From: Cytophagales bacterium
GTDB lineage: Bacteria > Bacteroidota > Bacteroidia > Cytophagales > Thermoflexibacteraceae
Reading direction: 5' to 3'
Assembly (NCBI GenBank): GCA_013298985.1
Contig: JAAFJS010000003.1
Location: 6,334 to 70,333 of the forward strand
DNA length: 64,000 nt
Positions 34,173 to 42,244 of the stretch are shown here, piece after piece. Position 1 is the stretch's first letter. Each line of letters begins with the position of its first letter. The notes beneath the pieces were generated by a model. It worked only from the letters and a program-made list of their open reading frames with translations. It searched no databases and had not been told where the DNA came from. The position numbers were made by a program, and so were the translations under genes.

Positions 34173-34424
34173 TTATGAATTTTCTATTTCAGCTATGATA
34201 TCATCTCCAAAGCGTTCAGGTATTTCCACTTCTTTGAGGTATTTCTCTGCGGCTTTGAGTGCTTCATCAATGCTATCGCTGTCGTTGTCTTCCCAGCAAA
34301 CGCCGCCCTCGTCTAAAACCATTAAAAAACTGTCGTGTTCATTGCCCAAACCTATTTGAGTGAAACCGTGATTTTCTATCCACCAAGCGAGGTAGGGATA
34401 GAGGGAGGAAAAGGATTTTTTCAT
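34173..34424 (-). CDS. small acidic hypothetical protein, last gene of the defence-like operon
   Basis: 83-aa ORF (YPYLAWW...LDEGGVCWE...DEAL) starting 9 bp after the upstream stop on the same strand. Confidence 0.65.
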   Translation of the reverse strand: MKKSFSSLYPYLAWWIENHGFTQIGLGNEHDSFLMVLDEGGVCWEDNDSDSIDEALKAAEKYLKEVEIPERFGDDIIAEIENS

Positions 34425-34433
34425 GGGGATTAA

Positions 34434-35498
34434 TTATTTAGTGTTATGACGCAGTTCTTTATCTGGGTCTACTTTGCCATATTTTTCTAAATTAAAATAA
34501 ATAGACCCTTTATGATTTTTACCTTTTTTATCAGAATGTACCTCAAATTCTCCTTTTTCAGTATCTACTGAAATATAAAGAATAGTACCTTGATAATCAT
34601 TTTTAGGTTCATAAACATCTCTTTGTCCACTACCACCTTTTTTGAAGTTTATGCTACTTCTCCCTTCATCTTTTTTCCAACCATTTATTTCTCCAATTAC
34701 TTTTGCTACTTTTTCTGCAAATGCAGGGTTATCTTTAAAACCAGTATTGCCTTTTTTATTGCCCTTCTGAGTTTCATCTTTTTTACCAATAGTAGATGCT
34801 TCGTTTTGTACTTGAGTTGAATATTCCGTAATTTTATTTGTGGTTTTTATCAACCGAAAAAGTGTTTGGGTTTTCTTGGAAACATCAAAATCAATTTTCC
34901 AAGTTGAAGACAAACCTCTATCCTCTTCAATGTATGTCCTTATAATTTCCTCAATTTTATTTTTGTGTTGTTGGGTTAGCAAAGGTAAGATATACTCTAT
35001 ACAATAGGTATAAATTTCAACCTCTTTTGCTTGATTCGTGTTAAAACAAGGTAGATTTTGATACTCATAACCATCTATATTAGTTAAAAAAACAGGAATA
35101 AAAGTTCTCAAACTATACTCTTTATCCAACACATTGATAATAAGTATGTATCTGTTTTGTATTTGCTGTTGAAAAGCATAATCAAGGATAGAATAAGATA
35201 CATCTTGATTTTCAATAAGTTTTGATTTGATATAGTAAAGTTTATCACTTTTAGGACTCCAGCTAATCGGATTAAACGCATCTGCTATCTTTTTTAGGAA
35301 AGTAATGTTACCCAATGCTTCCTCCAATTCTTCAAAAGTAGATTTATTAGATTGTTCAAATTCATTAATATTGTTAATATTTGCAGAAATATCATATTTT
35401 TTAGATAAATCTCTAATTCCACTAAGTGATTGGGCAAACTTCTCATCTAACAAATTCAGGCTTGTTTGTAGAGATAAATCGTTAAATAGTATTTCCAT
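34434..35498 (-). CDS. putative Menshen NsnC-like effector
   Basis: Third gene after DUF262 and the DUF3696 ATPase, overlapping the ATPase end. N-term ILFNDLSL; C-term NGW...YISVDTEKGEFEVH...H.G. Confidence 0.55.
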   Translation of the reverse strand: MEILFNDLSLQTSLNLLDEKFAQSLSGIRDLSKKYDISANINNINEFEQSNKSTFEELEEALGNITFLKKIADAFNPISWSPKSDKLYYIKSKLIENQDVSYSILDYAFQQQIQNRYILIINVLDKEYSLRTFIPVFLTNIDGYEYQNLPCFNTNQAKEVEIYTYCIEYILPLLTQQHKNKIEEIIRTYIEEDRGLSSTWKIDFDVSKKTQTLFRLIKTTNKITEYSTQVQNEASTIGKKDETQKGNKKGNTGFKDNPAFAEKVAKVIGEINGWKKDEGRSSINFKKGGSGQRDVYEPKNDYQGTILYISVDTEKGEFEVHSDKKGKNHKGSIYFNLEKYGKVDPDKELRHNTK

Positions 35499-36630
35499 TG
35501 GCTAAAATAATTGATAAATCAGTGTCTATTTGGTCAAAAAAACCTGTAATGTCCTTTTTGCGAAGTTCTTTAACTTTAAGTCTGGCACCTTCGGTAATAG
35601 GAATATCAAAAACCTGCGAGGTAGCATCGTTATTCTTTGTAAAATAAAATATTTTTACGTTCTCTGCTACATTTTCTTTTTTATTTTTAATAATTCCCAC
35701 CCTTACCCCATTCACAATATGGTCTGAGTGTGTTTCACAAAAAATCTGTACACCATTTTGGGCAGCGAGGCACATCAGTTCAGCAAGTTTAGATTGTCCT
35801 TTTGGGTGCAGGTGCGATTCTGGGTTTTCAATGATGAGCAAATCTCCTGCTTGGGCAGAAAGCAGGGCTATAATGATAGGAAGGGCGTAGGAAATGCCAA
35901 AACCTGTATTTTCAGGCTTAATTTCATCTGTATAACCATCATTCATTTCATATTTATATAACAATGTAACTGAACGTTCTTTATCATTTACGTTTGCATC
36001 TACCTGAATAGAAGGGCTTATTTCACCCACCCAAGCATTTACTTGCTCAATCAAATTTTTAGATTTGGTTTTAGGGTGTTGCAGAGTATCAAGGCTTATA
36101 GAAGCAAAATCTTTGATTTTTTGCCCTAAAAAATGAACTGCATATTCACATCTGCCTTTTATTTTAGAAATCTGATTTTTTTTAATAGTATCTTGGTCAT
36201 AATCTTGTTTTTTCTTGGGATGTATACGCTCTGCACTTATATACTGAAAACGAGTATTAAAAAGACTGATTTTTTCAAGATTTATAGTATTTTCTACACT
36301 CGACAATGACTCCGAAGAGCTAATCTTTTGCCTATCTATTTTAAAGTTGTATTTGTATTGGTCTTGTCCTATCCCAAAACTGAAACCAATGAAGTCAGCA
36401 TTTACTTTTTGTGTAAAAGCATTTTCTTGTGTACCTATTTCACACAAATCACCTTCTAATTCCAACGTCTCTATTTTACCTTTTTTAGCAGATTGTCTTA
36501 AAAGCAAAAGGGCTTGTATTAATGTAGATTTCCCCATGCCATTCAAACCTGTTAAAAGATTTAGATTACGAAAACTAAACTGATTATCACGTAAAATTTT
36601 AAAATTTTGTATATGTAAATGCGTAATCAT
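35482..36630 (-). CDS. AAA ATPase with C-terminal DUF3696 (Menshen NsnB-like)
   Basis: GLNGMGKST, YISAER, GFGISYALP, IIENPESHLHPKGQ, ETHSDH, GFFDQ. Confidence 0.85.
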   Translation of the reverse strand: MITHLHIQNFKILRDNQFSFRNLNLLTGLNGMGKSTLIQALLLLRQSAKKGKIETLELEGDLCEIGTQENAFTQKVNADFIGFSFGIGQDQYKYNFKIDRQKISSSESLSSVENTINLEKISLFNTRFQYISAERIHPKKKQDYDQDTIKKNQISKIKGRCEYAVHFLGQKIKDFASISLDTLQHPKTKSKNLIEQVNAWVGEISPSIQVDANVNDKERSVTLLYKYEMNDGYTDEIKPENTGFGISYALPIIIALLSAQAGDLLIIENPESHLHPKGQSKLAELMCLAAQNGVQIFCETHSDHIVNGVRVGIIKNKKENVAENVKIFYFTKNNDATSQVFDIPITEGARLKVKELRKKDITGFFDQIDTDLSIILANGNTI

Positions 36631-37565
36631 AATGCTTGGATTATATTTTCAATAAATTCAATATTTCTTAAATAATCAGAACGCAGATTTTGAAAATGTA
36701 GTTTTTTAATAAAAATATCGCTGTTCTGCATAATTTTAGCTAATTTTTTTTCATCAGTCAAAGCTACCAATAAGCAAAGAAACCAATGCATATTGGCTTT
36801 TTTATTTTGCTCTAATAATGATAAATTTTTAAGTGCTTCTTTAATCTTTTCTTTTAATGAGCGTAATAATTCTTGGTCTCTTACGTCAATTTGTAATAAC
36901 ACTTTGTTTTTAAAATATTGGAAATTTGTATTTTTATCAAATTTTTTTCCTTCCAAATAAAATGCTACAAAAAGACTTATTAATTCTATCAGGTTAATAT
37001 TTTTGGGTAAAAATTGAATTTCATACCTAATATATTCTTTAATTTGATTCAAAAAAATCAATAATTCAGGCTCTAAATCTTGGGCTTGGAGCAAGGATTT
37101 ATTAGTTACCCTGTTTATAATTACATATTTTTCCAATTTGGGCGTAGTAGGACTAAAATATCTTATAGAAACGACACGCCAAAAAATTCTATTTTTTTCG
37201 TATTCAGGTAATTCCTCAAAACTGAATTTGTTGTAGTTAAAAAATTCTAAACCAGTTAATCTAAGTCCATTCATCATAAATTCCTGAATAGCATATAAAA
37301 ATTCGTATCCAAAATCATCAACAGGACGAAATTTGGTTTCATTTGTAACATCTAAGTACAAAATAGGCAAAGGAATATTAAGCAAAATAGTTTCTATCAT
37401 CTTGCTTTTTTTGTGCGGATTAACCAAATGGCTATTTTTTCCAAAATTATTAAAAACAAATTTACCTTCTTCAATATTTCGCACCACTTCATTTAGTGCT
37501 ACTTCATGAGAAAGAATATTAATATTTTTAGAAAATAATTTTTGATGCTTGTCATTGCTTTCCAT
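36627..37565 (-). CDS. DUF262/ParB-like protein (Menshen NsnA-like) with degenerate motifs
   Basis: KSKMIETILLNIPLP.LY and L.LTGLEFF...FEELP match DUF262, and it has an ATGA overlap with the ATPase. Start taken at MESND (37565); GTG 37610 is an alternative. Confidence 0.7.
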   Translation of the reverse strand: MESNDKHQKLFSKNINILSHEVALNEVVRNIEEGKFVFNNFGKNSHLVNPHKKSKMIETILLNIPLPILYLDVTNETKFRPVDDFGYEFLYAIQEFMMNGLRLTGLEFFNYNKFSFEELPEYEKNRIFWRVVSIRYFSPTTPKLEKYVIINRVTNKSLLQAQDLEPELLIFLNQIKEYIRYEIQFLPKNINLIELISLFVAFYLEGKKFDKNTNFQYFKNKVLLQIDVRDQELLRSLKEKIKEALKNLSLLEQNKKANMHWFLCLLVALTDEKKLAKIMQNSDIFIKKLHFQNLRSDYLRNIEFIENIIQAL

Positions 37566-37628
37566 AGCTACAAAACTAATAATACTCCCCAAAACTAAAA
37601 AAACTTTCACAAAGTTAGCAATAATTCC

Positions 37629-40600
37629 CTACATATTCCTTCTATACTGCCCACCAACTTCATATAATGCCTGACTCATTTGCCCCAAAGAACAGACTTT
37701 TGCCGCTTCCATCAGACTTTCAAAGAGGTTTCCGTTATTTATTGCGGTGCTTTGTAAGTTTTTTAGCGCAATTTTTGCCTCTTTTTCGTGGAAAGCATGG
37801 AAACTGTTTAAGTCCTTGATAGTGAGTTCTTTTTCTTCGGTGGTACTTCTGATAACCTCTTTGGGCAGTACCGTAGGCGAGCCTTGCGGGTCAAGAAAAG
37901 TATTAACACCGATAATGGGTAGCTTGCCTTCGTGTTTGAGGGTTTCGTAGTACATACTTTCTTCTTGGATTTTGCTGCGTTGGTACATTCTTTCCATTGC
38001 GCCGAGTACGCCGCCGCGTTCGGAAATATTCCTAAACTCCTGCAAAACAGCTTGTTCTACTAATTCTGTTAATTCATCTATAATGAAAGCACCTTGTAAC
38101 GGATTCTCATTTTTTGACAAGCCCAATTCATGGTTAATTATCAACTGAATTGCCAAGGCTCGTCTTACACTTTCTTCGGTAGGGGTGGTGATAGCCTCAT
38201 CATAAGCGTTGGTATGCAGAGAGTTACAGTTGTCATAAATCGCATAAAGTGCTTGCAAAGTGGTTCTTATATCATTGAAAGCGATTTCTTGTGCGTGCAA
38301 ACTGCGCCCCGAAGTTTGGATATGATATTTGAGTTTTTGGCTGCGGTCGTTGCCTTTGTACTTGTATTTGATGGCTTTTGCCCAGATTCGGCGAGCTACT
38401 CTGCCCATGACAGAATATTCGGGGTCCATGCCATTGGAAAAAAAGAAAGACAAATTGGGTGCAAAATCGTCAATATTCATGCCTCTGCTTAGGTAATACT
38501 CGACAAAAGTAAAGCCATTGGAAAGGGTAAAAGCTAACTGTGAAATAGGATTTGCGCCCGCCTCTGCAATGTGGTAACCTGAAATAGAAACAGAATAAAA
38601 ATTCTTAACTTGTTGATTGACAAAATATTGCTGAATATCGCCCATCATTCGCAAGGCAAATTCGGTACTGAAAATGCAGGTGTTTTGCGCTTGGTCTTCT
38701 TTGAGAATATCTGCCTGAACCGTTCCACGAACTACTTGCAAGGTTTCTGCTTTTATTTTTTCATAAATCTCTTTATCAAGCACTTGCTCGCCTGTAACGC
38801 CCAAAAGTAGCAAACCTAAGCCGTCGTTACCTTCGGGGAGAGAGGCGTTGTATTGAGGTTGCCCCACCCGTAGCGACGGTCGCCCTAACCCCTCCCCAAC
38901 GGAGAGGGGAATATACTCCCTCCCAGAAGGGGAGGGCTGGAGTGGGGCGGAATAAATTGCTTGAATTTTCTTTTCTACTTCCTCCAACAATCCATTTTTC
39001 TTAATGTAAATTTCGCACTGCTGGTCTATGGCGGCATTCATAAAAAAAGCCAAAATCATAGGGGCGGGACCATTGATAGTCATTGAAACTGAGGTACTTG
39101 GGCTACACAGATTAAAACCAGAGTACAGTTTTTTTGCTTCGTCAATCGTAAAAATACTTACGCCAGAGTTGCCCACTTTTCCATAAATATCAGGGCGGTG
39201 GTCAGGATTTTCGCCATAAAGTGTAACAGAGTCAAAAGCAGTGGAAAGTCGCTTGGCAGGTAAGCCACTTGATACAAAGTGGAATCGCTTGTTGGTGCGC
39301 TCGGCATTTCCCTCGCCTGCAAACATACGCGCAGGGTCTTCGCCTTCGCGTTTGAGTGGGAAAACGCCCGCCGCATAAGGGAAGCTACCTGGCACATTTT
39401 CAGTGAGTAACCACTTTAATCTATCGCCCCAATCTTGGTATTTGGGCAGGGCTACTTTGGGGATTTTGAGGTGCGAAAGCGTTTCTGTATAAAGCTCTTG
39501 CGCTAAAATTTTATCACGAACTTTGAACTGATATTTTTCTGCGGTGTAAGTTTTTACTAAATCTTCCCAAGAAAAAAGCAGTTTTTTACATTCGTAGTCA
39601 AGTTGTTGTTCTAATTCATTGTATAATTGTTGGATTTGTTGGATTTGTTGGTTGTTGGTTGTTAGTTGTTGGATTGTTCCATTGAGTTGATACATTTTAC
39701 GCGCGATATTGCATTGATTTTCAACGAATTTGTCGTAATTATCGCTATTTTCTGCAATTTCTGCCAAGTAGCGCACGCGGTCAGGGGGAATGACAGCTAA
39801 TTGTTGGATTGTTGGATTGTTGGATTGTTCTTTTGGGCTATTAGTAGTCTTTTTTCCGTTGTCCGATTCCTCACTGACAACCCTTAAATTTACGTCTGTT
39901 TTTTTATCAATTTCCTCAATAATTTTTTCAAATAAAATATTCATTCCCAAGTCGTTGAACTGGCTGGCAATCGTACCGTAAACAGGCAAATCTTCATCTT
40001 TGCCTTCCCAATAGTTGCGGTTGCGACGGTACTGCTTTCTTACATCGCGGAGTGCGTCCAGCGAGCCTCTTTTGTCAAATTTATTGATGGCGATGAGGTC
40101 TGCAAAGTCGAGCATATCAATCTTTTCGAGTTGTGTAGCCGCGCCGTACTCGCTGGTCATCACGTAAAGAGAAACGTCGGCGTGTTCGGTAATTTCGGTA
40201 TCGGACTGTCCAATTCCCGAAGTTTCGATAATTATCAAGTCAAAACTTGCTGCTTTACAGATGTTTATGGCATCTCTGACATATTTGCTCAATGCCAGAT
40301 TGGACTGACGAGTCGCCAGCGAGCGCATATACACGCGAGGATGGTTGATGCTATTCATGCGGATACGGTCGCCAAGTAATGCGCCGCCCGTTTTGCGCTT
40401 AGAAGGGTCGACAGAAATAATTGCAATGGTCTGATTATCAGTATTTAGCAAAAATCTACGCACCAGTTCATCTACCAAAGAGGACTTGCCTGCGCCGCCT
40501 GTGCCTGTGATGCCAAGGACGGGGGTTCTTATTTGTTTGAAATTGTTTGAAGTTGTTTGAAGTTGCTCATTGTTAATTGATAGCTGTCCTTTGATTTTTT

Positions 40601-40691
40601 CGAATTGGTCAGGGTAGTTTTCTGCTAAGGTGATAAGCTGGGCAATGAGCTGATGATGATGAGCATTGAGTATTTTATTGGGCGTTGTCAT
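37629..40691 (-). CDS. icmF: IcmF-like MeaB GTPase + acyl-CoA mutase fusion lacking the N-terminal B12-binding domain
   Basis: [74 protein letters not shown]. No DxHxxG motif is present. Confidence 0.85.
38873..38947. repeat. palindromic REP-like element inserted in frame in the mutase
   Basis: Two GC hairpins (CCCCTCCCC-AAC-GGAGAGGGG; CCCTCCC-AGAAG-GGGAGGG). It encodes part of [28 protein letters not shown]. Confidence 0.75.
39626..39678. repeat. in-frame short tandem repeat (TTGTTGG-based 7-9-mers)
   Basis: ATTGTTGG ATTTGTTGG ATTTGTTGG TTGTTGG TTGTTAG TTGTTGG ATTGTT; encodes [18 protein letters not shown]. Confidence 0.8.
39800..39829. repeat. in-frame short tandem repeat (ATTGTTGG x3.75)
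   Basis: Direct read of the sequence; encodes [10 protein letters not shown]. Confidence 0.8.
40533..40562. repeat. in-frame short tandem repeat (TTGTTTGAAG x3)
   Basis: TTGTTTGAAA TTGTTTGAAG TTGTTTGAAG; encodes [10 protein letters not shown]. Confidence 0.8.
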
Positions 40692-40804
40692 GGTGTTTTT
40701 TTTGAGTGATGAGTTAGTAGTGATACATTATAAAGTTTTGATATTCATACATTTATAAACTAATATAACTCAAACTTGGTTAAGGCTAAGTGTATTTTTA
40801 TATG

Positions 40805-40812
40805 CAAAAATA
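40805..40812 (-). promoter_or_regulatory. candidate -7 promoter box for the mutase gene
   Basis: TATTTTTG on the minus strand, about 115 bp upstream of the ATG. Confidence 0.4.
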
Positions 40813-40942
40813 GGAAATTTATCTTAGAATTTCTCATAGATTCACTCACTAAAAATTTGAGCGTTTCTACTCATATTTTTTGAGCAAATCATGTTATAGG
40901 TTAGCAATAGAAAACCTGCTAATTTTGTAATATCAAATTAAG

Positions 40943-41120
40943 TAGGACTTACGCAGAGGTTCTTTTAGACACTTTAACTGCTTATAGTGAGGCTAAAAAC
41001 AGCAAAAAAATATCGTGCCTGCTAAATTAGGCAAAATTCGTTTTGCTCGTTTTCAAAATTTACATTTTAAGGCGTTTTAAGCGTATATTTCATTAGTTTC
41101 AAATTTTTGCGTAAGTCCTA
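40943..41120. mobile_element. 178-bp MITE, copy 1
   Basis: 13-bp perfect TIR TAGGACTTACGCA / TGCGTAAGTCCTA; near-identical second copy at 41440. Confidence 0.88.
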
Positions 41121-41185
41121 TTAAGATAATAAATATCTGATTTGATAAAGATATTATTAAGGGGGTAAATTTGAATAAAAATCTG

Positions 41186-41223
41186 AAACAGTCCTTTTGC
41201 TTTGCGGAGGGACTGTTTTTTTT
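41186..41223 (+). terminator. orphan intrinsic terminator between MITE copies
   Basis: AAACAGTCCTT / AGGGACTGTTT stem followed by T8. Confidence 0.6.
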
Positions 41224-41345
41224 GTTTAAGACAACCTTATTAATTGCTTTTTCGTAAGTTGAAAAATGGTGTTTTAAAAAAATATAGTTATTTAGTTTTA
41301 AACAAAACATACTTAAATGATTGTAAACCAATTTTTTAAATTATT

Positions 41346-41439
41346 TAGGACTTACGCATCGTTTTTATATTTCAAAAAACGTTTAACTTTGGGGCTAAAA
41401 CAGGGTTATTATGAACTATCAAGCATTTCGCAATATTTA
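41346..41439 (+). mobile_element. solitary left end of a related element with different internal sequence
   Basis: Third TAGGACTTACGCA at 41346, followed by a TAACTTTG box and an ATG, ending where MITE copy 2 begins. Confidence 0.55.
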
Positions 41440-41617
41440 TAGGACTTACGCAGAGGTTCTTTTAGGCACTTTAACTGCTTATAGTGAGGCTAAAAACAGC
41501 AAAAAAATATCGTGCCTGCTAAATTAGGCAAAACTCGTTTTACCAGTTTTCAAAATTTGAATTTTAAGGCATTTTAAGCGCATATTTCGTTAGTTTCAAA
41601 TTTTTGCGTAAGTCCTA
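41440..41617. mobile_element. 178-bp MITE, copy 2
   Basis: Same TIRs and length as copy 1; about 10 substitutions by manual alignment. Confidence 0.88.
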
Positions 41618-42012
41618 ATTTATATTCCTTACAATAGATTTATCTATAATTATTTTTTCCACTCTACTATGATTTATATGTTCTTTATCAAACAAAGTTT
41701 TATATGTAGTGTATAAATGAACATTAAATATAATTTTTTGAATCATTTATTGATAACAATGTCATTTCTTTAATTACTAATTTTTTACCACAACATTTAT
41801 TGATAATTGAAAACTGTTTATTGATAAGTTGCTAAGGTAAGGAAGGGGAAGGGAAAAAGGAAATAGCAAAAGCATTTATTTCTTATTTGACTGCCAAGTG
41901 ATATTTCTTATTAAGAACCTGTCAAATTTGATGAATAAAGTTTCATTCAAAACTTGAGGTGAAAAAATCAAAAAATTAACCTCATTTTAATCTTTCCTTT
42001 TCAAAAACGTTT

Positions 42013-42020
42013 TATCTTTG
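42013..42020 (+). promoter_or_regulatory. Bacteroidota -7 promoter box upstream of carB
   Basis: TATCTTTG(C), canonical TAnnTTTG. Confidence 0.55.
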
Positions 42021-42244
42021 CGAGATTTTTAAAATAGTTAAGTAAAAAGTAAACGTGAAAATACCAATATTTAACCCAATTCATAAAAACGCATACAAAA
42101 TGGCTTTACCGAACTTCTAAGGAAGTTTAGTAAAGCTAATTTTTTGAAATTTATTGTTGATTGTTAAATAACAGATGATTTTTAATGCAATTAACAACTA
42201 ACAATTTAACCATATAACTATTCAACAATTTCAATTTAATCAAA

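Follow-up and report, generated by a model that had tools for sequence, protein, structure and literature searches.

IcmF encoded by two unlinked genes in a Cytophagales bacterium: a GTPase-barrel protein whose cobalamin-binding domain is very probably supplied in trans

A 64,000-nucleotide stretch of a Cytophagales draft genome (contig JAAFJS010000003.1; this whole stretch is called the window below) contains an open reading frame (ORF) of 1020 codons for an IcmF-like acyl-CoA mutase that begins at its GTPase domain. We found that IcmF is encoded in this genome by two unlinked genes, one for a B12-binding subunit and one for a GTPase-barrel subunit. Very probably, the ORF in the window encodes the large subunit of an IcmF that occurs naturally in split form, and its cobalamin-binding domain is supplied in trans by a gene on another contig, C58. 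The enzyme itself is well known and its chemistry ordinary; what is new is the architecture. An earlier note, made from the letters of the window, had described the ORF as IcmF-like from the GTPase domain on, with no cobalamin-binding domain. This description was borne out by the Pfam domains, by the part of the IcmF profile that is covered and by a stop codon upstream. The large-subunit gene and its parts are listed here with their positions in the window.

37629..40691, minus strand: predicted large subunit of the split IcmF (P0001), 1020 amino acids, with a MeaB-type GTPase domain, a linker and an acyl-CoA mutase barrel.
39915..40538, minus strand: G-protein (MeaB-like) domain, amino acids 52-259; Pfam PF03308 MeaB, 145 bits; aligned to 4xc6 from residue 224 onward.
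37632..39404, minus strand: substrate-binding mutase barrel, about amino acids 430-1020; Pfam PF01642 (MM_CoA_mutase), 375 bits; aligned residue by residue to 4xc6.
38763..38990, minus strand: variable surface loop, amino acids 568-643, the gap between two stretches that are aligned by the IcmF model and by 4xc6.

The best match of the large protein among solved structures was the IcmF of C. metallidurans (PDB entry 4xc6, 1207 bits), which is collinear with it from the P-loop to the last residue. The P-loop (GTGGAGKS) lies within amino acids 60-70, and the ORF starts 59 amino acids before it, close to the roughly 55 that the earlier note had given. The G domain is collinear with that of 4xc6, and the MeaB-type domain is fused to the mutase in the large protein. 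Against the NCBIfam model NF045497 (IcmF; equivalog cut-off, 1500 bits), the large protein alone reached 1517.7 bits with an alignment to profile positions 147-1076 only, compared with 1690-1810 bits for fused relatives. A Pfam scan of the 1020-amino-acid product showed no B12-binding domain (PF02310). Addition of upstream sequence does not restore one: the frame is closed by a stop codon 12 codons before the ATG, and a tblastn search of the whole window with an IcmF B12 domain returned only noise, with nothing even at E <= 10. The B12 domain is therefore not present upstream in a shifted frame, which was one of the findings that the earlier note had named as fatal to its reading.

Two residues of the barrel are of the isobutyryl-CoA mutase type. 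Retention of the STAF motif, noticed before, was seen in the alignment with 4xc6, where both the Phe (RLSTAFDSV) and the Gln (KEDQAQNTC) typical of this type are identical to the aligned residues. At these barrel positions, which set the substrate specificity according to published work on IcmF and isobutyryl-CoA mutase, Phe and Gln replace the Tyr and Arg of methylmalonyl-CoA mutase. The variable loop of the barrel holds an insert at about 38873-38947 (amino acids ~584-610), a G+C-rich double palindrome that adds 24 amino acids in frame. An alignment of relatives and a blastn search with the element showed that it is absent from the sister species G002. Four relatives (G001, G006, G003 and G010) carry other inserts at the same loop, and pieces of the palindromic element were found at a few further sites in the genome.

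The source genome is a 6.06-Mb draft of 383 contigs with an estimated contamination of 1.8%. It was searched for B12-binding domains, as the earlier note had advised, and three hits were obtained: a 1276-amino-acid MetH-like frame, a 699-amino-acid methylmalonyl-CoA mutase and a short stand-alone ORF on C58, which is the separate small B12 gene that had been suspected.

C58:10406-10873, minus strand: small B12-binding gene (P0002), IcmF-type, 156 amino acids from the first ATG.

The C58 ORF matched positions 1-140 of the IcmF model with 257.5 bits, compared with only 29.7 bits for the B12 domain in the methylmalonyl-CoA mutase of this genome. Its product aligned to residues 43-181 of 4xc6 with 226 bits and the His of the DGHD motif is conserved; the score against the HcmB chain 4r3u_C was 57 bits. 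The ORF has its own stop codon, lies over 4 kb away from both ends of C58 and is convergent with the gene of a CCA-adding enzyme. The G+C content and tetranucleotide make-up of C58 are the same as in the rest of the genome. A PduO-type adenosyltransferase is encoded on C97, so that adenosylcobalamin can be made, and a separate MeaB is also encoded in the genome.

The two halves are exactly complementary. In the alignment of relatives, the small proteins end 10-14 residues past the last helix of the B12 domain and the large proteins start 5-10 residues before the conserved NHQLI..LAEN helix, and both ends fall in the same stretch of about 10 residues of the interdomain linker. Tail and leader add up to 32-38 amino acids, compared with 28-30 in the canonical fused linker, and nothing has been lost or duplicated at the junction. 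Both halves are under strong purifying selection. The ratio of nonsynonymous to synonymous substitution rates (dN/dS) ranged from 0.02 to 0.13 in the small gene and, within the genus, from 0.06 to 0.10 in the large gene; synonymous sites had reached saturation or were close to it. The earlier argument that an intact frame of 3 kb favours function agrees with this selection on both halves. Stand-alone small genes with 75-90% identity are numerous in metagenomes (contigs from JGI, ENA and Logan). All four that we examined, on contigs of 18-87 kb and with 84-88% identity to the gene of the source genome, stand alone and in four unrelated contexts. Such lone genes on independent contigs rule out an assembly artefact.

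The distribution of the two forms was determined in a family sample of 19 species genomes from seven genera (g1-g7) of the Cytophagales.

g1, g4 and g7 (4 + 4 + 3, that is 11 genomes): split; the large gene starts at model position 135-156, and a B12 gene of 154-165 amino acids is located on another contig.
g2, g5 and g6 (1 + 4 + 2 genomes): fused gene only.
g3 (1 genome): the single copy runs off the contig end and extends past the linker; probably fused.

The comparison of orthologue lengths, another proposal of the earlier note, thus showed that 11 genomes, from three genera, share this split, and because independent assemblies show the same architecture, the misassembly that had been feared does not account for it. 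Both halves were found in 10 of these 11 genomes; the exception, without a small gene, is G002, which is 62% complete. The large gene of G014 is cut by a contig end, and an apparent extension of it to profile position 220 was discarded, being a fortuitous match to the P-loop encoded by an unrelated neighbour gene. No genome of the family sample contained both the split and the fused form, and the halves were adjacent in none of the split genomes examined. All other families of the order that were sampled have the fused gene only. The most similar fused IcmFs (72% identity) were those of Microscillaceae and of other metagenome-assembled genomes (MAGs) of Cytophagales.

Outside this family the break point between the B12 domain and the GTPase-barrel part is rare. 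When the 80 best IcmF loci of all bacteria were compared, the B12 domain was present in frame upstream in 72, five loci were truncated by the end of a contig and the domain was missing from three; two of these three belong to the same Cytophagales family and one to a Chitinophagales MAG. The latter (L085, G438:C113) is an IcmF-like ORF of 1029 amino acids whose P-loop is preceded by about 108 unrelated residues. Neither a stand-alone nor any other IcmF-type B12 domain was found in the 3 Mb of that genome. The enzyme may be truncated or the bin incomplete, and the case was not counted as a second split lineage. An IcmF-type B12 domain was present in 207 of 401 genomes of a Bacteroidota sample. 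Among the 150 Bacteroidota matches listed, a short B12 frame occurred only in the source genome, and about 16 had the domain in a frame of 475-510 amino acids (for example G391:C4:209979-210416 and G156:C1:1892247-1892672), concentrated in the families f58 and f64. Judged by the size of the frame, these might represent the other possible split, in which B12 domain and GTPase form one protein and the barrel another, and which would then be the commoner one in the phylum. Adjacent ‘split’ genes from databases (P0063, P0113 and P0060) were not used, as they come from long-read assemblies in which the fragments overlap or are separated by 10 nt; P0113 in particular resembles an artefact of a frameshift. 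A full-text literature search, which did not extend to the founding IcmF papers, found no description of a split between B12 domain and GTPase-barrel part, and an earlier mention is possible.

The region upstream of the large-subunit gene contains a conserved segment and two copies of a miniature inverted-repeat transposable element (MITE).

40692..40936, minus strand: upstream region of the large-subunit gene, likely its promoter, with the TAnnTTTG box TATTTTTG; 69-82% blastn identity to the upstream regions of G001, G002 and G003.
About 40937-41121, no strand assigned: MITE copy 1; about 20 blastn hits in the genome; precisely absent from G002.
41440-41617: MITE copy 2, in the gene-free gap between the mutase gene and carB.

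The 245 bp adjoining the start codon are conserved throughout the genus, as judged by blastn. Upstream of the start codon the DNA is AT-rich and non-coding, as had been reported from the letters: 40692-42244 contains no ORF of note, and the G+C content of 41-42 kb is 26.5%. The TAnnTTTG box that had also been pointed out is indeed present, at 40805-40812 on the minus strand and 114 nt before the ATG. Taken alone it is weak evidence, because the motif is frequent in the window (121 occurrences in a motif scan compared with 86 expected). Between the mutase gene and carB, 1.5 kb of DNA are free of genes, and both MITE copies lie there; copy 1 was also delimited as 40943-41120. In G002, position 40936 joins 41122 directly and the rest of the upstream region is collinear with the window; copy 1 is a recent insertion. 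The suggestion of the earlier note that a truncation was linked to the MITE cluster did not survive, since this copy is missing from the closest relative and the split predates the genus. Upstream of its large-subunit gene, G002 (L154 6599-9095) carries segments matching 40776-40936 and 41122-41226 three times, about 1.0-1.4 kb apart, which represents a local tandem duplication of the upstream region.

We considered whether the ORF could be a functionless truncated remnant that is becoming a pseudogene, with the B12 domain removed by rearrangement or MITE insertion. MITE copies 250 bp upstream, in a gene-free, AT-rich gap, and the in-frame insertions gained by the gene would fit such a decay. 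However, 11 genomes from three genera have kept the frame intact, its dN/dS is as low as given above with synonymous sites near saturation, the matching small gene is kept in every near-complete split genome and the MITE is absent from G002, which makes a remnant very unlikely. Even less credible is an artefact of assembly or binning, in which the real gene is fused and its B12 piece misplaced, or in which C58 stems from another organism. The many contigs and the estimated contamination of the draft might raise this suspicion. It is contradicted by the in-frame stop, which is followed by 245 bp of genus-conserved DNA, by the position of the small ORF, with its own stop, well inside C58 and convergent with the gene of the CCA-adding enzyme, by the composition of C58, which is typical of the genome, and by the same two-gene form in ten other assemblies and in metagenome contigs of up to 198 kb. 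Taken together, the fit at the junction, the selection, the distribution and the metagenomic copies exclude a pseudogene and an assembly artefact.

The two halves could also have ceased to be partners, so that the large protein works with another B12 protein or without B12, and the small protein serves, for example, as a B12 carrier or sensor. In favour of this, the two genes are not linked, their contexts are not conserved and the neighbours of one bear no relation to those of the other. On the other hand, the halves co-occur strictly and exclude the fused form, the small protein is still 75-90% identical to B12 domains of the fused type, the other B12 domains of the genome occur only inside the methylmalonyl-CoA mutase and MetH, and the large subunit has kept all mutase signatures. 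We regard a loss of partnership as improbable, although it is the least improbable of these three explanations. Some observations do weigh against a functional two-gene isobutyryl-CoA mutase. The genes are on different contigs and no shared regulation is visible; genes of acyl-CoA metabolism adjoin neither half, so that the physiological substrate has no support from context; and the surface loop of the large subunit has acquired lineage-specific in-frame insertions. A split IcmF with both halves in use nevertheless seems by far the best explanation.

By sequence, both halves are derived from IcmF and do not resemble IcmA and IcmB, so the split state would be secondary, a product of fission, and not ancestral. 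In the tree of the GTPase-barrel part, two pairs of sister genera (each 100/99) combine a split with a fused genus, namely g1 (split) with g2 (fused) and g7 (split) with g5 (fused), and g4 is placed apart. An approximately unbiased (AU) test on this tree rejected a single clade of split forms (p = 0.0005); the tested group was chosen after the first tree had been viewed, though it is defined by an independent trait. The RpoB tree showed (g1,(g7,g5)) with good support. In the tree of the short B12 domain, g5 grouped with g7 and g4 with g7+g5, and monophyly of the small subunits was not rejected (p-AU 0.136). Since fused genera stand between split ones in the trees, at least three changes of state are implied, for which repeated fission is the simplest account. 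On balance, we lean towards IcmF having been split independently two or three times (in g1, g4 and g7), within the same stretch of about 10 linker residues and with the halves unlinked each time, while nearly all other bacteria have the fused gene.

A single ancient fission in the ancestor of the family, followed by re-fusions in the fused genera, seems possible but less likely. It would agree with the B12-domain tree, which groups g4 with g7+g5 and does not reject a single origin of the small subunits. The only fused IcmF that is sister to the source genus, that of G004 (L119, C117; g2), has a linker of 69 amino acids between B12 domain and GTPase, compared with 28-30 in most fused forms; this may be a linker expansion or the scar of a re-fusion. 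Both sister pairs of the GTPase-barrel tree, the AU test on it and the RpoB tree argue against a single fission. In addition, the fused g5 gene has a canonical linker of 30 amino acids, as in other families, which could hardly be restored by re-fusing unlinked genes, and the halves are nowhere adjacent in the split genomes examined. Because of these last two points, repeated fission is modestly favoured over one fission with re-fusions.

No GTPase relic was found downstream of the small genes, and synteny around both genes is almost nil, even within the genus, so the mechanism of fission is not recoverable. Faint traces of synteny, between the small-gene loci of G009 and G017 and the neighbours of the fused gene in G008 (families F2-F4), were too weak to serve as a clue. 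G006 contains an ORF of 160 amino acids (L112 1342-1824; C16:77161-77640) that is 95.6% identical to the last 159 amino acids of its own IcmF large subunit, about 5 kb away, and is a recent partial duplicate. Partial duplications thus occur in these genomes, which makes duplication followed by complementary loss a feasible route to fission.

Two-subunit relatives of this enzyme are well known. The isobutyryl-CoA mutase of Streptomyces consists of the subunits IcmA and IcmB and is served by a stand-alone MeaB-like chaperone, and both in this enzyme and in 2-hydroxyisobutyryl-CoA mutase the B12 subunit is a small protein of its own that docks on the barrel subunit. By analogy, we infer that the small subunit would bind adenosylcobalamin through the His of its DGHD motif and attach itself non-covalently to the barrel of its large partner, in the way that IcmB docks on IcmA. 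An active site would be formed in this way, in which the docked subunit would supply adenosylcobalamin for the rearrangement between butyryl-CoA and isobutyryl-CoA. The N-terminal GTPase domain of the large subunit would keep its chaperone role and gate the loading and removal of the cofactor. More speculatively, an untethered cobalamin domain might be charged or exchanged in trans. IcmF is a model for the way in which a G-protein chaperone loads and removes the B12 cofactor, chaperone and client being one chain (PMC10481361). In fused IcmF, dimerisation of the G domains wedges the enzyme open and the cobalamin domain is moved off the barrel during loading (PMC10481361). An untethered cobalamin domain is compatible with this mechanism.

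Compared with the IcmF of C. metallidurans (4xc6, 8ssl; NF045497), the G domain, linker and barrel are collinear and the Phe and Gln of the isobutyryl-CoA mutase type are kept, whereas the cobalamin domain is a separate polypeptide from an unlinked locus and extra in-frame insertions are present in the loop between two barrel segments. A separate small B12-binding subunit is shared with IcmA/IcmB and HcmA/HcmB (4r3u). In contrast to IcmA, which has the barrel only, the large subunit here bears the GTPase chaperone at its N-terminus. The putative other split of IcmF (B12 domain and GTPase in about 480 amino acids, barrel separate) would likewise be a two-gene form broken at an interdomain linker and occurs in the same phylum, but there the chaperone would stay with the cobalamin domain and here it stays with the barrel.

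If the two proteins do work together, they offer a natural form in which the cofactor-binding subunit is free and the chaperone still sits on the barrel. Such a form would allow a test of whether gated loading needs a tethered cobalamin domain and of whether charging occurs in trans. Recurrence of the split, if true, would mean that the linker between cobalamin domain and G domain is a tolerated break point and that an untethered cobalamin domain is neutral or advantageous, for example because loading, repair or dosage of the B12 module might no longer depend on the catalytic body. In evolutionary terms the case is a clean one: a gene broke at a domain linker and its parts were dispersed, probably more than once in the same family. 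It also bears on annotation: the genes now carry generic names such as ‘methylmalonyl-CoA mutase’ and ‘cobalamin B12-binding domain-containing protein’, and read together they would describe one isobutyryl-CoA mutase.

Directly downstream of the mutase gene, four tightly packed genes are located at 34173-37610 on the minus strand. One product, of 382 amino acids, is an AAA_15/AAA_21 (AbiEii-like) ATPase, and the other three are without a Pfam match. With 28-36% G+C this segment is AT-rich, and it resembles an insert of the defence type.

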